A stretch of 64,000 nucleotides of DNA from Dehalococcoidia bacterium (GTDB lineage Bacteria; Chloroflexota; Dehalococcoidia; SM23-28-2; WHTN01): positions 4,753 through 68,752 of the forward strand of contig WHTN01000004.1 of assembly GCA_009377715.1 (NCBI GenBank), given 5' to 3'. A model generated the notes under the pieces. The model worked only from the letters and a program-made list of their open reading frames with translations. It had not been told where the DNA came from and did no database searches. Positions within the stretch are counted from its first letter, which is position 1, and each line of letters opens with the position of its first letter. Position numbers and translations under genes: made by a program. Below, piece after piece: positions 12,248 through 62,865 of this stretch.

Positions 12248-12254
12248 CCTTACG

Positions 12255-13200
12255 TCAATTTAAGAAGTTTATAGCTCTTTGAGCTAGACACCCCTCATCG
12301 CATCCACATGTCGAAGTTCTGCGTTGCTCTAAGCGACACTGGCCTAAAAACGGCGATAACTCTAGTACTTCTCCCAGAGACTTACGAAACACGTTATCGT
12401 AATCAGACTCAGAAGGCCTCGGCTCAACGTTGTGACAAGGACTAATCCAACCGTCCCATCGCACCACAAGCTCTTTAGCGATCGCCACGCATTTGTTCGG
12501 CTCACGATAGCGAGCAAGTGTCGCCTCTCCAAGTCGAACGCGAACATGAGCTTTATCACCGATCATATCGATATGCTCTCTGAGTAGCTCGAAAGGCACA
12601 AAAAAGGCTGTCTCCCTTGGTAGCTGCTCTGCCTTGCGGCACACTCGTCAATATGCGTAGTTCATGAATTCCCAATTCATCGCAAAGAGTTGCTGCTTGG
12701 AGTAGATCAGTCAAGTTGCCGGGGTATGCGAAGAAGGTACACGTAACATTGATTCCAGCCTTGACCATATTTTTAACTGCGAGACATGTCGCTTCAAAAC
12801 TCCCTTGTATCCGAGTTAATGCATCGTGACGAGCAGCCAGCCCAGAATGAAGAGATACACGGCACAGATCGACCCAATTCTTCATCTCAAGCGCTCTTGA
12901 GGAGTCAATCGGAACCAGCCGATATGACGAGTCGAAAAGGACACCCATTGAGAACAATATGGTATTTAACCCGCAGACCTTTGAGCACTCTAGAATTGAG
13001 TGTAGTGATTCATGAAGCAACGGTTCGCCACCTGTAACGATTAGGCTTTGCCCACCTTGGTCTTTAAATTCCTTAATGAGTTTGCAGGCAACGGTATGAT
13101 CCATTTTCTGAGTTCTGCGTAACCCGGCTGATACAGAGCAGTGCCCGCACGCTAATGGACACTGCTGCGTAATCTCCAACCGTAAAGTATCAATTGTGTA
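12255..13200 (-). pseudogene. radical SAM / SPASM-domain enzyme, frame-disrupted (ORF-track pieces 12556..13257 and 12255..12644)
   Basis: CPLACGHC (CxxxCxxC) and TGGEPLL in N-terminal piece; Cys-rich twitch/SPASM-like C-terminus (WDGWISPCHNVEP...CGCDEGC) in another frame; shift within ~12600-12645 next to an A6 run at ~12600-12605; start trimmed to the internal Met. Confidence 0.7.
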
Positions 13201-13777
13201 CATCTGCGGTACTCGATAATAATTGGCGTATGGCAGTGATTGCTTCAAGCCTTGCATCTGTCGAAACTACGACCAATTCGCCAACTTGAAGATCGCACTC
13301 GCGTGCTACCAACCGCTGCAGTCTTGCGAGTCCCACGAAATTGCTATATGCCTTACTGTGGTAATGTTGACTGCGGTACGTTGCTGTCATTATGAGTTCA
13401 CCATCGCGCTGGTGAAATTGAATCGATGAGAGACATGGAAACCCTCTGTTCGCCGCAGCTGAAGTTGATGGCCTACCGAAAAGAATTGGCCGTGGATCGA
13501 CTCCACTTCGGCGCAACGAACGAATGATTCTTACAATTTGATTGACCTTGCCACTCCCGTCATAGTCAACCATTCGCACAAAATAATTGCGGCTATCCAT
13601 TTTCCTTATAAGGCGCTGCGCAGCCTTTTCCCAATTGCTTGCCTCGATCACGGAAATCGGCATTATAGTACGGGCTACGGCACGCATACTGTGTGAGGCG
13701 TCTAGCGATAAAGCCCGATCTATAAGGACACCGCGCTCATCCTCAAAAGACGAAGGTCTTTCTATGCTTACTACCAA
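13190..13777 (-). CDS. thymidylate-synthase-fold protein, 3' portion of a gene interrupted by the IS1595-family insertion
   Basis: alignable by eye to ThyA core: ..GFPCLSSIQFHQRDGELIMTATYRSQHY..SNF..ARECDLQVGELVVVSTD.. vs E. coli ..[46 protein letters not shown]..; begins at TTG 4 nt from the IS left end. Confidence 0.6.
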   Translation of the reverse strand: MVVSIERPSSFEDERGVLIDRALSLDASHSMRAVARTIMPISVIEASNWEKAAQRLIRKMDSRNYFVRMVDYDGSGKVNQIVRIIRSLRRSGVDPRPILFGRPSTSAAANRGFPCLSSIQFHQRDGELIMTATYRSQHYHSKAYSNFVGLARLQRLVARECDLQVGELVVVSTDARLEAITAIRQLLSSTADVHN

Positions 13778-13854
13778 ATTAGGGTAATAATCTAGTTGAC
13801 TCAGTAGAAAAGTCGCTCTATGATTGCTTTAATCTTATTAGCCTGTGGGAGATT

Positions 13855-14610
13855 ATGCAGTCATTTAGCGGTTTTGATTTGTTCGGTTTGGGGCAATTCA
13901 TCACCGCGCTAACGGAAGGGGAAGGGCAGCGCATAATCCCAGAAGACACGCGCCATCAGATGGAGCAGGCTGCGCGGCAGGCCCGGCGGACATGCATTCT
14001 TTGTGGTTTTCCCGCAACGGCTGCTGGACTCGCAAGACTAATTGCCGACCTGCAAGCTCCAATAACTGAGGAGCAGGTCACGATAGGAGGGAGGTATTGC
14101 TTCCAGGCTCTAACGGATGAAGCAGGCGCTAGATTATTTCTTTACATGGGCGAGAGTCGTAGGTATTACTATGAGTCCCCATCAGAAGGATGGAACGATG
14201 TGTTAGAGAAGTTTCCGTCAGCGCGGCTCGACATAGAGGAAGCCAGCAAATGTTACGCATTAGCCCGGTATACAGCTTCTGTGTTCCATTCGATGCGGAT
14301 ACTAGAGCCAGCGTTGAATGCGCTTGCTGGCGAGTTTGCTGTGTCTACGGATAGGGCAAACTGGCATAACATCCTAGATCAGGTCGTTGCCGCTATTGAA
14401 CAAAAGAGTAAGGCGCAAGGGGCTGGGTGGACAGACCAACAGTTCTATTCGGAGGCGGCTGTAGACCTACGTTTCTTCAAGGACGCGTGGCGCAATCACG
14501 TAATGCACGTACGAAAGACCTTTGATGAAGAAAGAGCGTTAGGTATTTACCAGCGGGTCCGCGACTTAATGAGGCACTTATCTACCAAACTAAGCGAGCC
14601 ACCCCTATGA
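13855..14610 (+). CDS. passenger gene of the IS: hypothetical protein with a possible HEPN-like R-x4-H motif (WRNHVMH)
   Basis: 251-aa ORF between IR-L and transposase; the single R-N-x3-H motif near the C-terminus is the only HEPN evidence. Confidence 0.5.
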   Translation: MQSFSGFDLFGLGQFITALTEGEGQRIIPEDTRHQMEQAARQARRTCILCGFPATAAGLARLIADLQAPITEEQVTIGGRYCFQALTDEAGARLFLYMGESRRYYYESPSEGWNDVLEKFPSARLDIEEASKCYALARYTASVFHSMRILEPALNALAGEFAVSTDRANWHNILDQVVAAIEQKSKAQGAGWTDQQFYSEAAVDLRFFKDAWRNHVMHVRKTFDEERALGIYQRVRDLMRHLSTKLSEPPL

Positions 14611-14759
14611 CTTGTCCCGCACCTCATCCTTCGGCTCTCGTATTGCTTCCTTCGGCACGCGGACTATCTTGCGCGTCAACCGCTCAAATCGTTCCCATGC
14701 CGTCTCCGGCGTGCCCTTCGGTTTCTTGGGGTCATTTGCCATGTTTCCCCCTTCCCTGT

Positions 14760-15719
14760 CTACGTTGGCGTCGTAGCGTCTCCTATAAGCTCTGCGTAGG
14801 TCAATCGCTTGCCTGTAATCCTCTTAGCGAGCCGCAGGAAGCGCTCGCCGTCGGTTGCCCTTCGACTGTTGAATCGAAAGGCTTCTTCATCAAGATAACG
14901 GAAAAGGTGGAACGGCTCTACGCTTACATAGGTGCCTTTGATAGCACGTTTCAAGAGGCTCCAGAAATTCTCAATGCCGTTGACGTGAATCCTGCCTTCG
15001 ACGTACTTCTCCGCGTGGTCAATAACACCATGAATATAATCCATCTTCAAGTCATCATAAGAGCGAAACGCGTCTGTAAAGACCTCAGCGCCTTCCTTAG
15101 CCTGACTGCGGACTTGCCCGCTCAGGGCATGGCGGCGACGATTCGCTACGATGGTAGTCCTGACGGTGCTGTGTCCGTCTGGCCCGTGACGCTCCAAAAG
15201 GCCCATGACTGCAACTTTGCCAGTGGCCCAGGTACCAGTAATCTTCTCCGCTCGCTTGTCCTTGTGCATGAAGCGGGCCTTGCCACCGATAAAGGTTTCA
15301 TCGACTTCGATGATGCCGTCCATCTTAGTGTAGTCATCGGACTGCATAGCGAGCCGTATGCGATGGAGCATAAACCAAGCGGTTGTTTGAGTCACGCCGA
15401 GAGCACGGGCCAATTCATAGGAGCTAATACCGTTCTTGTCGTTGGCAATAAGCCACAAGGAAGGAAGCCACCTGTCCAGACCGATAGGGCTGTCCTCAAA
15501 GATAGTCCCTACCTTGACCGAGAACTGCCGTTTGGCGTGCTTGTCCTTGCACTCCCACAGTTGGCGAGTAGAGATGTAACGCGCATCGGTTCGGCCACAA
15601 TTAGGGCACGCGATAACGCCATCGGGCCATCGCATCGCGAGCATAAACTTTTGACAAGTCTCAGGGTCAGAAAAGAACTTAATCGCTTCGAGAAGGGTTG
15701 CGGGCTGGCTGTTATTCAT
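14760..15719 (-). CDS. IS1595-family transposase (ISXO2-like, N-terminal zinc ribbon + DDE domain)
   Basis: 319-aa ORF; ..MRWPDGVIACPNCG.. zinc-ribbon and ISXO2-like DDE region. Confidence 0.9.
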   Translation of the reverse strand: MNNSQPATLLEAIKFFSDPETCQKFMLAMRWPDGVIACPNCGRTDARYISTRQLWECKDKHAKRQFSVKVGTIFEDSPIGLDRWLPSLWLIANDKNGISSYELARALGVTQTTAWFMLHRIRLAMQSDDYTKMDGIIEVDETFIGGKARFMHKDKRAEKITGTWATGKVAVMGLLERHGPDGHSTVRTTIVANRRRHALSGQVRSQAKEGAEVFTDAFRSYDDLKMDYIHGVIDHAEKYVEGRIHVNGIENFWSLLKRAIKGTYVSVEPFHLFRYLDEEAFRFNSRRATDGERFLRLAKRITGKRLTYAELIGDATTPT

Positions 15720-15784
15720 GGCTTTTACTCCTTACAGCCACATTATAACCCAGATAGCTTACTGAGTCAACTAGGTTATTACCC

Positions 15785-15945
15785 AAATTAGATACTCGAT
15801 GATCCTTGGTTTCGAGAAGACAGCTTATAGCTGTTTGCCACGCAGGCCATATATCTGTTTCCGGAATATACAAAGACTGTTCATGGTACAACCTCTTTAT
15901 CTGGTATAGCTTTGAAGGCGAGGCTATCTTGAAGGGCTGATTCAT
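15785..15945 (-). other. displaced 5' fragment of the ThyA-fold gene (in frame with 13777 once the IS and one AAATTA copy are removed)
   Basis: ORF 15712..15945 runs from ATG into IR-R; its frame is continuous with the TTG at 13777 across the insertion point; reconstructed product ~248 aa (ThyA is 264 aa). Confidence 0.45.
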
Positions 15946-16933
15946 CCATTCTTAGTCGTTTGGCCATCGACTGTGAAAGCACTCTGTAATAATTCAGTGG
16001 TGTCGTCTCCCCTTTGGGTGGCGTCATTTTTTTTAGGACTCTAACTGTTGAGTCATTAACTATACCCAGAGCACGCAGCCGGGCGAGTGCTGCTGCGTGG
16101 CTAATTCCATAAGAAGTTTCCATTTCAGCCAGGCTATCCAATATGAAACCTGATGCTAGATATGCTTGAATAGTTTGTCGGGGCAATAGAAGGGCTGAAG
16201 CGAAGACATCTGCTCGATATTCCATGTGCGAACGTGGGCCAGGGCGTTCCCAGCCCGCATCACAAACCGTTGTCCGTAATTCACGATCCATCAGGTAATG
16301 AGCTAATTCATGGGCAAGTGTAAAGCGCTGACGGGAACGCGGCTGGTTATAGTTGACGATTATTGAGGCAAACCTCTTCTCGTCTACGACCATACACCCT
16401 GCAACCCTGGACTTACTCGGAAAACGGGCCCCGAAGACGGCTAGGCCTAGGCGGGTTAAAAGGCCTGAAAAACCGCTTATTGGTTCATTTGGTGGGATAC
16501 CCAAATGTTTACGAATCCTGCGCGCTAGCAACTCACCGGCTTCTGTATCTGCACGAAGTGCTAAATTACGGGTTACATTCGGCGTCTCGCAGGAATCGGA
16601 GACTTGCGAAAGAGAATCATGCAAGGTAAGAAACCAAGATAAGACAGCTTGATCCTCGGGGCTAACAGGTCCAGACCGAAACCGGAAAAGATTGCTACGA
16701 CTGGCCTTTACCGATACAGTTGGTCGGGGCTTAAGTAACTCTACGACAGGACAATTTAATAGTTTGGAAATTACTGAAAGCTCGGAGGCAGTAACGCTAC
16801 GCGATCCTTGCTCAATTCGACTTATCGCAGATCTATCGACACCAAGCAACTCGGCGAGTTGTGCCTGGCTCAGGCTTTGACGATAGCGTGCTTCTTGGAT
16901 ATTGTATCCAATATCCTTATCCGAAACTCTCAT
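15881..16933 (-). CDS. fused XRE-family HTH + ImmA/IrrE-family zinc metallopeptidase (COG2856-like) regulator
   Basis: HTH ..LSQAQLAELLGVDRSAISRIEQG..; HEXXH as FTLAHELAHYLMD; start placed at internal Met (MRVSDKD) because upstream is AT-rich promoter-like DNA abutting the leuS stop. Confidence 0.8.
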   Translation of the reverse strand: MRVSDKDIGYNIQEARYRQSLSQAQLAELLGVDRSAISRIEQGSRSVTASELSVISKLLNCPVVELLKPRPTVSVKASRSNLFRFRSGPVSPEDQAVLSWFLTLHDSLSQVSDSCETPNVTRNLALRADTEAGELLARRIRKHLGIPPNEPISGFSGLLTRLGLAVFGARFPSKSRVAGCMVVDEKRFASIIVNYNQPRSRQRFTLAHELAHYLMDRELRTTVCDAGWERPGPRSHMEYRADVFASALLLPRQTIQAYLASGFILDSLAEMETSYGISHAAALARLRALGIVNDSTVRVLKKMTPPKGETTPLNYYRVLSQSMAKRLRMDESALQDSLAFKAIPDKEVVP

Positions 16934-16940
16934 TTCGGAT

Positions 16941-16970
16941 ATTATAGGCCGGTTATGATCATGGATGCAA
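16941..16970 (-). promoter_or_regulatory. candidate sigma70-type promoter for the XRE-ImmA gene (leaderless transcript)
   Basis: minus strand TTGCAT (16970-16965), 18-nt spacer, TATAAT (16946-16941), ATG 7 nt downstream. Confidence 0.35.
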
Positions 16971-17010
16971 TATTTATTTAAGAGTTTATGTGCGCATTCC
17001 ACACAGGAAA

Positions 17011-19504: not shown

Positions 19505-19969
19505 TTAGCGAAGTCGATTCTGCATATATCGTACCACTGGCGCCAATCTTTCGTATGCAAAATTATACCGATTATTATCCTCTGCGCCACTGTTACCGAA
19601 TTGAGTTACGTCGTTATGCAATTCGAAAAGTTCGTCGAGAAGAGCTACGAATGCTCCGTCCAAATCGAAGTCATCGATATCGCGAGATTGGGCATTAGCA
19701 TCGTTCAAGGCGTCTCGCTTGACAGCCTCTGGCAGGATGGTGACAACCGCCCTTCGCATGGCGAAGCGGTCGATCTCTGAGCCGGTTGCGCCGACGCGGA
19801 AGCGTTCCTCTAGAATTACGAGCGAGAAGCGGTCGAAGGAGCGCCACAGTTCGAGGAACGCCCGCGGCCAGTCTCCCTGAGCAGCAGAGCTTTGAGCCGC
19901 CTGAAGCATCGTCTGCGCATCGGCCCGCATAAGACTATCTCTTGGGTTCAACACTGATTGTGAGGCCAT
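19505..19969 (-). CDS. hypothetical protein
   Basis: 154-aa ORF upstream of leuS; 3' end runs into AT-rich leader-like DNA so boundaries uncertain. Confidence 0.35.
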   Translation of the reverse strand: MASQSVLNPRDSLMRADAQTMLQAAQSSAAQGDWPRAFLELWRSFDRFSLVILEERFRVGATGSEIDRFAMRRAVVTILPEAVKRDALNDANAQSRDIDDFDLDGAFVALLDELFELHNDVTQFGNSGAEDNNRYNFAYERLAPVVRYMQNRLR

Positions 19970-20081: not shown

Positions 20082-20158
20082 GGCCCCGTGGTGTAGTGGC
20101 CTAACATATCTCCCTGTCACGGAGAAGATCGTGGGTTCGAATCCCATCGGGGTCGCCA
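20082..20158 (+). tRNA. tRNA-Asp (anticodon GTC)
   Basis: cloverleaf folded by hand: acceptor GGCCCCG/CGGGGTC, U8, D stem GTGT/ACAT, anticodon stem TCTCC/GGAGA with loop CTGTCAC, T stem GTGGG/CCCAT with TTCGAAT loop, G73, encoded CCA; followed by T-run. Confidence 0.85.
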
Positions 20159-60138: not shown

Positions 60139-61467
60139 CTAGCGGTCTTGGGAGACAGGCTCCGCTCGCGTAGACATATTGTGATGAGCGAAGTAGTTCA
60201 TCCCCGGTAACGTCTCTAATCGCCGGTACTTAGGGTTTAACAGAGCAACTATAAGAACACAGATTGAAATTATCACGCCTGCCGTGGCAAGAGTCGCTTG
60301 GGGACCGATCTCCTCTGCCGCAATAGTCATGGGCAAAGAAGCGATGGGCATGAACGACCAGGTCATCATATAGACACTCATTACGCGCCCATGGTACTCC
60401 GGTTCGGCGTACATCATTACTAACGTATTGTTGATAGACATGAAGATAGTGCCGCAGAAGCCCATCAGCATTAAGCCCACAAGCGCAAATTCGAAGCTCA
60501 TAGCCGAAGCGAAGGTAAGTAGAAAGAGGCCGAAGCCTATACCAGCCACAAGCTGCATTTGTGACTTGCGAGGGTTGGCCGACATGGTGCTAATAACCAG
60601 CGATCCCACAAGCGCTCCCAGGCCAGCAAAGGTTGACATCATGCCCAGACCCTCAGCTCCGACGTGATGGACTGTCCGAGAGAAAAGCGGCAGTAGCGTC
60701 ATGTAAGGCATACCCAGCATCGTAACGACGAATGCCAATCCGATGAGGGTCGTGAGGACGGAACTGGCGCGGATGTACCGCAGTCCCTCGCCGATCTCTT
60801 CGGTCATCGCCCTAGGTACGCGGTCCTTAGGTACGGCACTGTGCGGCAGCCTAAACAAGGTCAGGACCACTATTAAATAAAAGAAGGCTATCAGGTAGAA
60901 AACGCCGGTTAAGCCGAAAAAGGCGAGGGCTATCAGCACGCCAGCGATCGAGGGCGCGGCGATACGAGTGAGATTCATGGCAGCGTTGCTGAGGGCTATG
61001 CCGTTCATCAGGTCTCGCTCGCTTAGGATCTCTGCCAGAAGCGCCTGGCGAGCAGGCATGTTGAAAGCAAAGATTGCGCCTTGAAATAGGCCAAGAGCGA
61101 AGAGATGCCACACCTCGATAACATCGATGTGCACCAAAATAGCGTTCGTTAAAGCCAAAACGCCCATCAGCACCTGAGAAGCGATAAGGATGCCCCGCTT
61201 CTCAAGGCGGTCAGCGACCGCGCCACCCACTAGTCCGAAGACCATCTGGGGTATACCCCAGGCCAACGCAACCAGGCCTAAGGCAATAGCTGAATCGCCG
61301 GTGATCTCCGCAGTCAGCCAACCGCGAGCGATCTGCTGCATCTGCATAGCGGAGAACGATGCGAGCATGGAGAACCAAAGTATGCGGTAATCCAGGTTGC
61401 TAAAAGCGGAAAAGGTCTTTCGCCACCCGTGTAGCTGGCTTTCCGTCTCAGCGTGCGCTACGTCCAT
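60139..61467 (-). CDS. MFS transporter
   Basis: 12-TM ORF, 442 aa. Confidence 0.8.
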   Translation of the reverse strand: MDVAHAETESQLHGWRKTFSAFSNLDYRILWFSMLASFSAMQMQQIARGWLTAEITGDSAIALGLVALAWGIPQMVFGLVGGAVADRLEKRGILIASQVLMGVLALTNAILVHIDVIEVWHLFALGLFQGAIFAFNMPARQALLAEILSERDLMNGIALSNAAMNLTRIAAPSIAGVLIALAFFGLTGVFYLIAFFYLIVVLTLFRLPHSAVPKDRVPRAMTEEIGEGLRYIRASSVLTTLIGLAFVVTMLGMPYMTLLPLFSRTVHHVGAEGLGMMSTFAGLGALVGSLVISTMSANPRKSQMQLVAGIGFGLFLLTFASAMSFEFALVGLMLMGFCGTIFMSINNTLVMMYAEPEYHGRVMSVYMMTWSFMPIASLPMTIAAEEIGPQATLATAGVIISICVLIVALLNPKYRRLETLPGMNYFAHHNMSTRAEPVSQDR

Positions 61468-61671
61468 ATCACCCTTCGCAGTCCCACATCAACTCCGCTC
61501 GCAGCATAAATATACTAAATAACAATAAGGCTTCCAGGAGATTTAGTCTATAAGCTCAACCAGGATTCATGTCTAAATACGAATAATTCTAACACACTAA
61601 ACAAATCTCCGGCTAAAATATTAGCGTAATAAGTGATAGAGCAGGAAATTTAAGAATTCCATAGCTTTATA

Positions 61672-61700
61672 TTGACAGTTACCGATCCATACTATATAAA
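61672..61700 (+). promoter_or_regulatory. candidate sigma70-type promoter in a 450-bp AT-rich divergent intergenic region
   Basis: TTGACA (61672-61677), 17-nt spacer, TATAAA (61695-61700). Confidence 0.3.
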
Positions 61701-61917
61701 GACTACATCAATGCATTAGGGCCGATCCCATTAGTACGGCTGTTTACTTACTGATAAGTTAAAACTATACTTTGCTTAGGAGTTGTAAATAGCACCCAGT
61801 GCGAGATCCTAAATATTTTTGCCGTACTTATTGTCTGATGCGGCATTTGCCTTTATACTATGGCGCAAAATTAGAAAGTGGTCCCAGAAAAAGTAAATAG
61901 TAGGGGGTAAGTGAGCC

Positions 61918-62865
61918 ATGCAACAATATATCGCCCGTAGAGCGCTCCTCATTATACCCACCATGCTTTTGGTGAGTATTTTCGTCTTCGGTATGGTGCG
62001 GGTCCTGCCCGGCGATGTGGTACTGGCGCAACTCTTTGATGCTCCCCAATTCAGGCCTGAGGACGAAGCACGGCTACGCGAAGAGCTTGGTTTGAATACC
62101 CCCGCGCCCGTCCAATACGTCGAATGGATAGGCGGAGTAGTACGAGGCGACCTTGGGGATTCCCTGTGGACGGGACGGGACGTTGCGAGCGAGATCTGGA
62201 AGCGCATGCCCGTTACCTTTGAGCTGGCTATAATGACGTTCATGATCTCCCAAATTATCGCCCTTACCGTGGGGGTGATTTCAGCGATTAGACAGGACTC
62301 TGCGATCGACTACATCTTACGAGTGTTTGCTATTGGAGGACTCTCGATACCTTTCTTCTGGATTGCTACATTAGTAATAGTTTTGGGCGCTAGATATTTC
62401 GGATATTTACCTCCACTTGTTTATCAGTCCTTTGTGGATGATCCTCTAGGGAACCTTCAACAATTTATAGTCCCTGCTGCTATCCTAGCCTTCGGTGGTT
62501 CGGCAACGACCATGCGCATGATGCGATCGTCGATGCTCGAGATCCTACGTCAGGACTACATTCGCACCGCCTGGTCGAAGGGTCTTCGTGAGCGACAAGT
62601 AATCTACCGCCACACACTCCGCAACGCGTTCCTTCCAGTAGTAACGTTACAAGGCGCCCAGATAAGCTTCCTCCTAACGGGAAGCTTGATAGCCGAGATC
62701 ATCTTCAACCTCCCCGGCACTGGTCGCTTGGCTTATGACGCCGTGATTAACCGTGACTACACGATGATCCAAGGCATCGTTTTAGTCTTTGGAACATTGT
62801 TTGTAGTGATCAACTTGGTCGTCGACCTGATTTATGCGTGGCTCGATCCTCGCATCCGCTATTAG
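61918..62865 (+). CDS. ABC transporter permease (DppB/OppB-like)
   Basis: 6-TM ORF with EAA-type loop. Confidence 0.85.
   Translation: MQQYIARRALLIIPTMLLVSIFVFGMVRVLPGDVVLAQLFDAPQFRPEDEARLREELGLNTPAPVQYVEWIGGVVRGDLGDSLWTGRDVASEIWKRMPVTFELAIMTFMISQIIALTVGVISAIRQDSAIDYILRVFAIGGLSIPFFWIATLVIVLGARYFGYLPPLVYQSFVDDPLGNLQQFIVPAAILAFGGSATTMRMMRSSMLEILRQDYIRTAWSKGLRERQVIYRHTLRNAFLPVVTLQGAQISFLLTGSLIAEIIFNLPGTGRLAYDAVINRDYTMIQGIVLVFGTLFVVINLVVDLIYAWLDPRIRY

Follow-up and report, generated by a model that had tools for sequence, protein, structure and literature searches.

The 64-kb window analysed here (64,000 nucleotides of contig WHTN01000004.1 of a Dehalococcoidia bacterium) carries a 4.7-kb island at positions 12250–17005, located between a coaD-linked gene and leuS and encoding an XRE-type helix-turn-helix (HTH)/M78 protease regulator, a thymidylate synthase (ThyA)-like protein and a radical S-adenosylmethionine (SAM) protein. 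We see an even chance that the island is what remains of a self-regulated conflict module acquired by horizontal transfer and most likely directed against phages or plasmids. The module is a rare variant of an uncharacterised system, widespread on plasmids and islands, which probably turns modified uracil nucleotides against invading DNA. The copy in the window is non-functional, with a ThyA-like gene split by an insertion sequence (IS), a frameshifted radical SAM gene and a missing glycosylase gene; the regulator gene is intact.

The GC content of the island is 0.494, and 0.475 for the 2,755 bp left without the IS, compared to 0.563 for the rest of the window; the lowest value of any 2.7-kb segment outside the island is 0.500. 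Sliding GC was 0.48–0.50 over 12.5–17 kb compared to 0.58–0.60 in the flanks, and GC at third codon positions (GC3) ranged from 0.40 to 0.46 in the three island genes compared to 0.58 to 0.73 in coaD, the gene of a 145-aa neighbour and leuS. By composition, the island is foreign, horizontally acquired DNA, and the AT-rich insertion described in an initial annotation of the window is borne out by windowed GC and GC3 alike. The open reading frame (ORF) list and Pfam place the three genes in series on the minus strand, with the touching or overlapping boundaries annotated before. The stop codon of the M78 protease gene (15881–15883) lies inside the 5' end of the ThyA-like gene (TTG start at 15891), and the stop codon of the latter (13190–13192) overlaps the start of the radical SAM gene (ATG at 13203). 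The island ends 7 nt short of the host gene for the 145-aa protein. No att-like direct repeats were found flanking the island and no terminator-like sites at its ends, the single site in the scan being located inside the regulator gene on the opposite strand. An Rfam scan gave a tRNA-Asp as its sole match.

The ThyA-like gene is present as a 5' fragment of codons 1–36 (15784–15891, minus strand; tblastn and reconstruction), starting with TTG and overlapping the regulator stop, and a reconstructed 3' fragment (13190–13782, minus strand) with the catalytic Cys (FPCLS), YRS and Asn motifs. Excision of the IS together with one copy of its target duplication rejoins the pieces in frame to a protein of 230 aa from TTG 15891, whose N-terminal length agrees with that of its homologues. 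The rebuilt protein scores 32.9 bits against Pfam Thymidylat_synt (PF00303; cut-off 24.3), in agreement with the ThyA fold assigned initially, and has the characteristics of the ThyA superfamily (alpha/beta fold, catalytic Cys, Arg166/Ser167 and the residue at the N177 position). In a HMMER alignment to solved ThyA structures, FPC150LS, YR170S171 and N181 align with C198, R218, S219 and N229 of the L. casei enzyme. C150, R170, S171 and N181, the equivalents of E. coli C146, Arg166, Ser167 and N177, are invariant in the close clade. In a census of 174 representatives of the wider ThyA-like family, the catalytic Cys was found in 171, the N177-equivalent Asn in 172 and the Arg166 equivalent in 165; the Ser167 position is occupied by Ser in only 64 and by Asn in 75.

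The folate-binding Asp169 is kept in only 23 of the 174 representatives and replaced by Tyr, His or Phe across the family (His in the window protein). Gly is found in 141 of them at the L143 position, which is that of the residue keeping water out in methyl-forming enzymes (PMC13326640). The protein stops approximately 35 residues early, with loss of the C-terminal lid, and neither the Arg126'/Arg127' phosphate clamp nor the deoxyribose contacts His207/Tyr209 are conserved in the clade. The best NCBIfam match is TIGR03283 (archaeal/methanogen thymidylate synthase; 9e-16), with a score of 58 against a cut-off of 174.55, and the remaining NCBIfam ThyA equivalogs score ≤30. Identity with the canonical folate-dependent ThyA (EC 2.1.1.45) was rejected because of these losses and sub-cut-off scores. 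Judged from its residues, the protein is not a thymidylate synthase; it is very probably a catalytically competent ThyA-fold enzyme, with uracil as the predicted base because the uracil-specifying Asn at the N177 position is conserved. The flavin-dependent dCMP 5-hydroxylases AfhB and RB69 gp48 (PDB 9iqc, 9iqu; PMC13326640; 18% identity) are cytosine-specific with Asp at the N177 position and carry Asn at the D169 position, whereas the ThyA-like clade has Asn at the former, which predicts uracil, and Tyr, His or Phe at the latter.

The radical SAM gene is in two parts as well. Its core part (12606–13203, minus strand; Pfam, homologues and Foldseek) starts over the ThyA-like stop and contains the CX3CX2C motif as CPLACGHC. 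According to frame analysis, a 1-nt insertion in a T6 homopolymer (12600–12605, minus strand) breaks the frame by +1, leaving the Cys-rich C-terminal part (12255–12599, minus strand; Pfam and alignment) out of frame. Shortening T6 to T5 gives a protein collinear, residue for residue, with the proteins of L004 (a metagenome contig, see below) and P0030-36; the homologues are 44–49% identical. The Pfam Radical_SAM score (PF04055; 46.4 bits, cut-off 29.5), the motif, the partial TIM-barrel core and the Foldseek matches substantiate the radical SAM assignment made initially. The SPASM domain named along with it could not be upheld, as the PF13186 scores (19.4 for the window, 15.1 for L004) are below the cut-off of 21.5 and four C-terminal Cys are invariant (C238, C256, C301 and C305; a fifth is present in most homologues) rather than the full seven-Cys motif. 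This pattern fits a predicted twitch or partial-SPASM domain with one auxiliary cluster. The structures nearest to an AlphaFold2 model of the protein (pLDDT 83.5) were, in Foldseek, SuiB and SkfB (TM 0.75), followed by BlsE (TM 0.66), DesII, PqqE and viperins; such matches to a predicted structure give the protein a class, not a substrate. Searches against plasmids gave generic radical SAM matches only, at approximately 26% identity or less.

The intact first gene (15881–16933, minus strand; Pfam, PADLOC, PHROG and synteny) encodes a fusion of XRE-HTH and an ImmA/IrrE-type M78 metalloprotease of 350 aa. The longest ORF extends from GTG 17002 (15881–17002), and ATG 16933 is favoured as the start because 350 aa agrees with the Logan gene call and the homologues. 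Matches to Pfam HTH_3 (4e-13) and Peptidase_M78 (6e-15) confirm the XRE-ImmA identity proposed earlier, and the HELAH zinc motif is intact. RmrA models of PADLOC cover the protein almost completely (up to 4e-29, residues 33–326); it also matches phrog_2439 (2e-45), and its protease domain matches PADLOC capP (4e-25). Orthologues with 35–42% identity are encoded directly upstream of the ThyA-like genes in L001, L003, L004, L005 and L010. An imperfect palindrome upstream of the regulator gene, TGTGTGGAATGCGCACA (16989–17005, minus strand), is a candidate operator suggested by its conserved pattern GTGYG..CRCAC. In the window, L001, L004 and L010 the pattern precedes the XRE-M78 start, at 55–71 nt upstream, and its position in L003 is comparable; it is hence present in five of five loci that include sequence upstream of the regulator gene. 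A stricter form has only 2 occurrences on both strands of the window. A perfect 9-bp inverted repeat (TATCCGAAA/TTTCGGATA, 16918–16941) detected by a repeat search across the regulator start codon may be a second operator or an RNA structure. A candidate promoter recognised by eye (TTGCAT-18 nt-TATAAT, 16941–16970, minus strand) is positioned 8 nt before ATG 16933 and would give a near-leaderless transcript; it was not reported by a consensus promoter scan, and its -35 hexamer has 3 of 6 matches only.

Close homologues are rare: in a set of 5.8 billion clustered proteins, nine (about 9–12) ThyA-like and approximately 8 radical SAM proteins were found. When the ThyA-like alignment was used for scanning, 3 short loci only were obtained from the Joint Genome Institute (JGI) metagenome contigs, and one good locus, in a Dehalococcoidia metagenome-assembled genome (MAG), plus one partial locus from the GTDB genomes, where the genome of the window was not among the matches. 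In L004 the regulator, ThyA-like and radical SAM genes are all intact and overlap at the same junctions, and in L008 and L009 the ThyA-like gene stands beside a radical SAM gene. The regulator and ThyA-like genes of L001, L002, L003 and L010 (the last a Dehalococcoidia MAG) are accompanied by MazG and MazG_C instead of the radical SAM protein, and those of L005 by a dTMP-kinase-like gene; a radical SAM gene takes the place of MazG-MazG_C in four loci. Co-occurrence of the three genes in other genomes, the test set in the initial annotation, was thus observed. Its three-gene unit is conserved, but the third position, held by a radical SAM gene in the window, is taken by either of two other genes elsewhere, and a fourth partner had been missed. 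This is a gene for a protein of approximately 210–250 aa of the uracil-DNA glycosylase (UDG) superfamily, similar to SMUG proteins and present in all nine compact loci other than the window, four of which are truncated by a contig end. In loci with a radical SAM gene, this gene and the UDG-like gene are convergent with overlapping 3' ends. The UDG-like protein has the motif GEAPGxxGxxxSGVPF and HPS, and its only PDB sequence match is a weak one to SMUG1 (E 0.29). SMUG1-family enzymes remove 5-hydroxymethyluracil (5-hmU) and 5-hydroxyuracil (5-hoU) from DNA.

A few further genes were seen in these loci. In L008 (1489–5304), the ThyA-like and radical SAM genes are separated by two embedded genes, one for a SIR2 protein of defence type and one for another ThyA-like protein of greater length, and L009 (2260–3861) encodes a 533-aa protein with an N-terminus resembling the ThyA-like family and a C-terminal alpha/beta hydrolase. 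Similar class I SAM methyltransferase genes, recognised by eye from the translations, flank the module in L004 (3620–4390, minus strand) and L010 (10570–11628, minus strand). They indicate either that related Chloroflexota genomes have an insertion neighbourhood in common or that there is one more accessory gene.

A profile search recovered 1,185 family representatives at E < 1e-3, the number being 715 at E < 1e-10 (clustered at 50% identity, approximately 1,200). None of 10 sampled representatives reached the Pfam Thymidylat_synt threshold, and among 16 members and relatives scanned, the window protein alone did so. The distant members (approximately 250–290 aa) are encoded in larger operons of Alphaproteobacteria, Actinomycetota, Cyanobacteria and one haloarchaeon, located on plasmids and islands, the latter in chromosomal or metagenome contigs that carry mobile-element genes. 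In contigs of Mycobacteroides abscessus, other actinobacteria or metagenomes, genes for a small protein, the ThyA-like protein, an AcpS-type phosphopantetheinyl transferase, an HTH protein and a long M78 protease are followed by those for a C1-peptidase-like protein and MazG-MazG_C with or without Tmk, and a 5-hydroxymethyldeoxyuridine (5-hmdU) DNA kinase gene (HMUDK_hel) is located on the opposite strand. In annotated plasmids, tblastn matched 26 records, 16 of them typed as conjugative. The seven plasmid loci examined (Sulfitobacter, Acuticoccus, Bradyrhizobium, Sinorhizobium, Streptomyces, the cyanobacterium Allocoleopsis and the archaeon Haloarcula) share a small ORF (in some cases with the annotation 'acyl carrier protein'), HTH, ImmA/IrrE, sometimes a C1 peptidase, and then the ThyA-like gene; MazG-MazG_C is present in six. 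One of two further genes is present, annotated as 'uracil-DNA glycosylase' or as 'nucleotide kinase domain' (HMUDK), and sometimes AcpS, dCTP deaminase or Tmk. UDG and HMUDK were never found together in approximately 16 distinct loci.

Defence genes adjoin several of these loci (type IIG and type I restriction-modification, a GajA/OLD-like ATPase-nuclease), and a SIR2 gene is embedded in one. Carriage on plasmids and integrative and conjugative elements (ICEs) was seen, and resolvase, TniQ, FtsK/RepSA and IS elements are among the neighbours. The wider neighbourhoods fit the general direction of the initial annotation, pyrimidine C5 modification and/or defence. Its phage-derived option finds no support, as the ThyA-like clade is absent from 2.9 M IMG/VR contigs and has no relative in 50,697 phage genomes (INPHARED), where tblastn gave marginal matches to canonical ThyA only. 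The MazG-MazG_C protein matches the phage family phrog_229. The larger relatives (L015–L019, L006, L021–L026; M. abscessus, Streptomyces, rhizobial, cyanobacterial and haloarchaeal loci) include an AcpS-type transferase, a small ORF that in some of them is labelled acyl carrier protein (ACP) and a papain-like C1 peptidase beside ImmA. Genes similar to dCTP deaminases are located beside three plasmid-borne systems (L020, 9659–10384; L023, 1862–2557; L026, 1847–2632); such enzymes would supply dUTP/dUMP, in line with a uracil-nucleotide substrate.

The IS in the ThyA-like gene and the frameshift in the radical SAM gene confirm that both enzyme genes are broken, as annotated before, and together with the foreign composition they agree with the earlier view of a decaying acquired system. 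L007, a separate Logan assembly, has the same IS and the same T6 frameshift; the frameshift is reproducible there, with the reservation that L007 is possibly derived from the same reads. No remnant of a UDG-like gene was detectable in the window. Loss of the glycosylase, either as effector or as host safeguard, would render the remaining enzymes useless or harmful, and this would fit the inactivation of both enzyme genes.

In the mechanism proposed, the fused XRE-HTH/M78 protease would repress its own operon via the conserved palindrome and, upon an infection or DNA-damage cue, would inactivate itself. The divergent ThyA-fold enzyme thereby released would attack C6 of a uracil nucleotide with its conserved Cys and install a group at C5, most likely hydroxymethyl or hydroxyl, by a cofactor chemistry that, from the loss of the folate-binding Asp and the C-terminal lid, is predicted to be non-canonical. 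Supply of dUMP could be provided by dCTP deaminase and MazG. A variable partner (MazG pyrophosphatase with MazG_C, a dTMP-kinase-like protein or the twitch-type radical SAM protein) would feed or elaborate the nucleotide. The predicted kinase MazG_C, or Tmk, would return the product to the triphosphate pool, from which polymerases would write the modified base into DNA; this succession, from dUMP supply to incorporation, is one known from phages. Finally, the SMUG-like UDG in the compact loci or the 5-hmdU DNA kinase in the larger systems would turn the modified base into lesions stopping the invader; these two last components, mutually exclusive in the loci seen, would both act on C5-modified uracil in DNA. 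The radical SAM protein may act on the nucleotide, by analogy with viperin or BlsE, or on modified DNA, by analogy with gp53 of phage M6. More tentatively, with a confidence clearly below that in a conflict module as such, these systems may form a widespread immune class of mobile elements in bacteria and archaea, in which an ImmA-cued, folate-independent ThyA-fold enzyme brings C5-modified uracil into foreign DNA and a SMUG-like glycosylase or 5-hmdU kinase converts it into lethal lesions; the radical SAM step would be without precedent in immunity.

Several points weigh against a conflict module acting in this way. The ThyA-like family is known here from genes and sequence alone, and the few close relatives make the statistics for the compact type thin. 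The clade lacks the partner-subunit Arg pair and the His/Tyr pair that hold dUMP in ThyA, so that a substrate other than a free 5'-monophosphate is conceivable. The SMUG-type label of the UDG-like protein is based on its motif and the match with E = 0.29. The ACP/AcpS proteins and the C1 peptidase, which have no obvious role in a nucleotide pathway, are not explained by the model, and the pathway logic of the MazG variant may not transfer to the radical SAM variant, which is without kinase or pyrophosphatase. Moreover, PADLOC (2023) has no model for any non-regulatory component (ThyA-like, radical SAM, UDG-like, MazG_C, HMUDK, C1-peptidase and AcpS proteins); only the regulator was matched.

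Among known systems, the module works most like DS-4 and the phage hypermodification clusters, though it is a member of neither. DS-4 ('NTTI') of E. coli consists of a thymidylate synthase, a deoxynucleoside monophosphate (dNMP) kinase, a 5-hmdU DNA kinase, TIR and Nmad2, was shown by experiment to protect against phage (PMC13092281) and is a precedent for the role proposed here. MazG/MazG-C/UDG defence systems are predicted by DefensePredictor, and MazG_C is described as a predicted kinase (PMC13092281). Both DS-4 and these predicted systems are, like the module, non-phage bacterial operons of pyrimidine C5 modification enzymes, and the mechanism is unknown for DS-4 as for the module. The compact MazG/UDG type may be identical with the predicted MazG/MazG-C/UDG systems. 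The DS-4 synthase is of the canonical type (361 aa) and in profile comparison unrelated to the ThyA-like clade (hhalign probability 0.2%), and DS-4 has TIR and Nmad2 and is without ImmA/HTH, UDG and radical SAM proteins. Membership in DS-4 was rejected, since the kinase, TIR and Nmad2 genes are absent from the window and the synthase profiles do not align. Bacterial pyrimidine-modification operons acting as defence are a kind known only since 2025–2026, without mechanism. No description of an ImmA-linked, folate-independent ThyA-like clade with UDG or HMUDK, or of its radical SAM variant, was found in the literature searched, which did not cover older comparative genomics.

The hypermodification pathways of phages SPO1, M6 and ViI share with the module a ThyA homologue acting on dUMP and an NTP pyrophosphatase plus dNMP kinase (PMC5889632, PMC8989533), and further a 5-hmdU DNA kinase acting on DNA, where HMUDK phosphorylates 5-hmdU (PMC5889632, PMC8989533), and, in M6, gp53 acting on the modified base. 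Phage M6, which combines 5-hmdU chemistry with the radical SAM isomerase gp53 in thymidine hypermodification (PMC8989533), also shows that the initial annotation went too far in stating that a ThyA-superfamily enzyme and a radical SAM enzyme are paired in no characterised system, though it is not a close relative: gp53 is spore-photoproduct-lyase-like, the window enzyme SPASM/twitch-like. Phage pathways are phage-encoded, shield phage DNA and include aGPT-Pplase and pyridoxal phosphate (PLP) enzymes, which are absent here. Membership in a phage hypermodification cluster was rejected, as the island is without phage genes, aGPT-Pplase was never seen and HMUDK occurs only in the distant larger systems.

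An unlikely explanation, yet the strongest rival, is a DNA self-modification shield, by which a plasmid, ICE or prophage would replace or hypermodify thymine in its own and the host DNA and so escape restriction in new hosts, in the manner of phages with bases derived from 5-hmdU; the radical SAM protein would then sculpt the appended group like M6 gp53. The enzyme classes are those of phage thymidine hypermodification (ThyA homologue, MazG-type NTPase, dNMP kinase, 5-hmdU kinase, radical SAM; PMC8989533), and the share of conjugative plasmids (16 of 26) and the phrog_229 match of MazG-MazG_C point in the same direction. A shield is, however, difficult to combine with the absence of an aGPT-Pplase-type transferase, a PLP enzyme and a glycosyltransferase from the loci, and with the absence of the ThyA-like clade from the viral contigs and phage genomes searched. 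A partner from the UDG superfamily would be odd, and tight HTH/ImmA repression suits an induced weapon better than constitutive marking.

RosmerTA (RmrA) and CapH/CapP are similar to the module in that an HTH plus ImmA/IrrE-type metalloprotease heads the operon, and the regulator has the fused HTH and M78 domains of RmrA; its cargo genes, however, have no relation to RmrT or CBASS models. Strict membership in RosmerTA was rejected because no RmrT model matches the ThyA-like or radical SAM protein. It is improbable, and less probable than a shield, that the locus is a Rosmer-like toxin-antitoxin or addiction system, with the ThyA-like protein and its partner as metabolic toxin (e.g. depleting or trapping dUMP/dTMP precursors) and the HTH-M78 protein as antitoxin, serving mainly to stabilise mobile elements rather than as immunity. 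This would be consistent with the nearly full-length RmrA match of the regulator (4e-29), with plasmid and island carriage and with a window copy in which the toxin-side genes are inactivated and the regulator is intact. The RmrT side is lacking, however, and systems of four to eight genes with a DNA-acting UDG or HMUDK exceed the needs of an addiction module; RosmerTA itself is classed as a defence system, which makes this explanation overlap with a conflict module.

The prokaryotic viperins (pVips) resemble the radical SAM protein in a defence-like context and in that both could act on a pyrimidine nucleotide (TM 0.6–0.67). The PADLOC pVip match (1.6e-9) is limited to the N-terminal core (residues 9–148), and membership was rejected, since this is a generic radical SAM core and the C-terminus is a four-Cys auxiliary-cluster domain of a kind shared with SuiB, SkfB and BlsE and lacking in viperins. 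The mildiomycin cluster, which presumably pairs MilA with a BlsE-like radical SAM enzyme, would be a second exception to the initial statement on characterised pairs, but is not a close relative of the module. Synthesis of a nucleobase or nucleoside antimetabolite, with enzymes resembling MilA (a CMP hydroxymethylase) and BlsE/MilG in the mildiomycin and blasticidin pathways, is very improbable: the radical SAM model has BlsE as one of its best structural matches, but glycosyl-, peptidyl- and export genes are absent, the third gene is exchangeable with MazG or a kinase, and the context is one of mobile elements and defence rather than of a biosynthetic cluster. In addition, the base-specifying residue is Asn here and Asp in MilA (PMC13326640). 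A housekeeping role, in which the gene would encode an alternative thymidylate synthase of short archaeal type accompanied by accessory genes, as hinted at by the best NCBIfam match (TIGR03283), can practically be dismissed in view of the score far under the cut-off, the lost folate-binding Asp, the foreign DNA, the IS-disrupted gene in an otherwise intact genome region and the constant linkage of the ThyA-like gene with HTH/ImmA.

If a conflict module using modified uracil is the correct explanation, the locus would be an entry to a large unstudied ThyA-fold clade (approximately 1,200 representatives at 50% identity) that abandoned canonical folate binding and is always accompanied by an HTH/ImmA switch and enzymes acting on C5-modified uracil in DNA. 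Nucleotide-based immunity, so far comprising dNTP depletion and viperin chain terminators, would be extended to deliberate DNA mis-modification. Enzymology would gain a new C5 chemistry, a radical SAM enzyme of the twitch type with nucleotides or DNA as its target and a SMUG-like glycosylase devoted to a substrate of its own, and tools for site-independent DNA labelling would be added. The window copy itself is dead, and its value is that it leads to intact relatives in L004, L010 and the plasmids of Sulfitobacter, Bradyrhizobium and Allocoleopsis, some of which belong to cultured strains.

The element splitting the ThyA-like gene (13783–15783, minus strand; 2,001 bp) belongs to the IS1595 family according to its transposase with zinc ribbon, inverted repeats and 8-bp target duplication. 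The terminal inverted repeats (13783–13806 and 15760–15783) are 24 bp long with 1 mismatch, as found by repeat analysis, and the target duplication is CAAATTAG (13775–13782 and 15784–15791). The transposase (14760–15719, minus strand) matches DDE_Tnp_IS1595 (1e-34) and Zn_ribbon_IS1595 (1.8e-11), and is accompanied by a 45-aa ORF (14605–14742, minus strand) and by a 251-aa passenger ORF in the opposite orientation (13855–14610, plus strand). No family match of the passenger ORF was found in Pfam, NCBIfam or PADLOC; it has a weak match to phrog_32483 (1e-6), forms a singleton cluster among 15 billion proteins and contains a stretch, WRNHVMH, compatible with the R-x4-H motif of HEPN nucleases. 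Strong inward-facing sigma-70-like promoters are located at both IS ends (TTGACT-17-TATGAT, 13796–13824, plus strand; TTGACT-17-TATAAT, 15742–15770, minus strand), one positioned for the passenger ORF and the other for the transposase.

Outside the island, a second stretch of still lower GC (0.445–0.47) is found near the end of the window (61000–62500). A 154-aa ORF without family match (19505–19969, minus strand) is located between leuS and tRNA-Asp(GTC) (20082–20158, plus strand). The leuS ORF as listed carries a long N-terminal extension, and its true start is probably further downstream.

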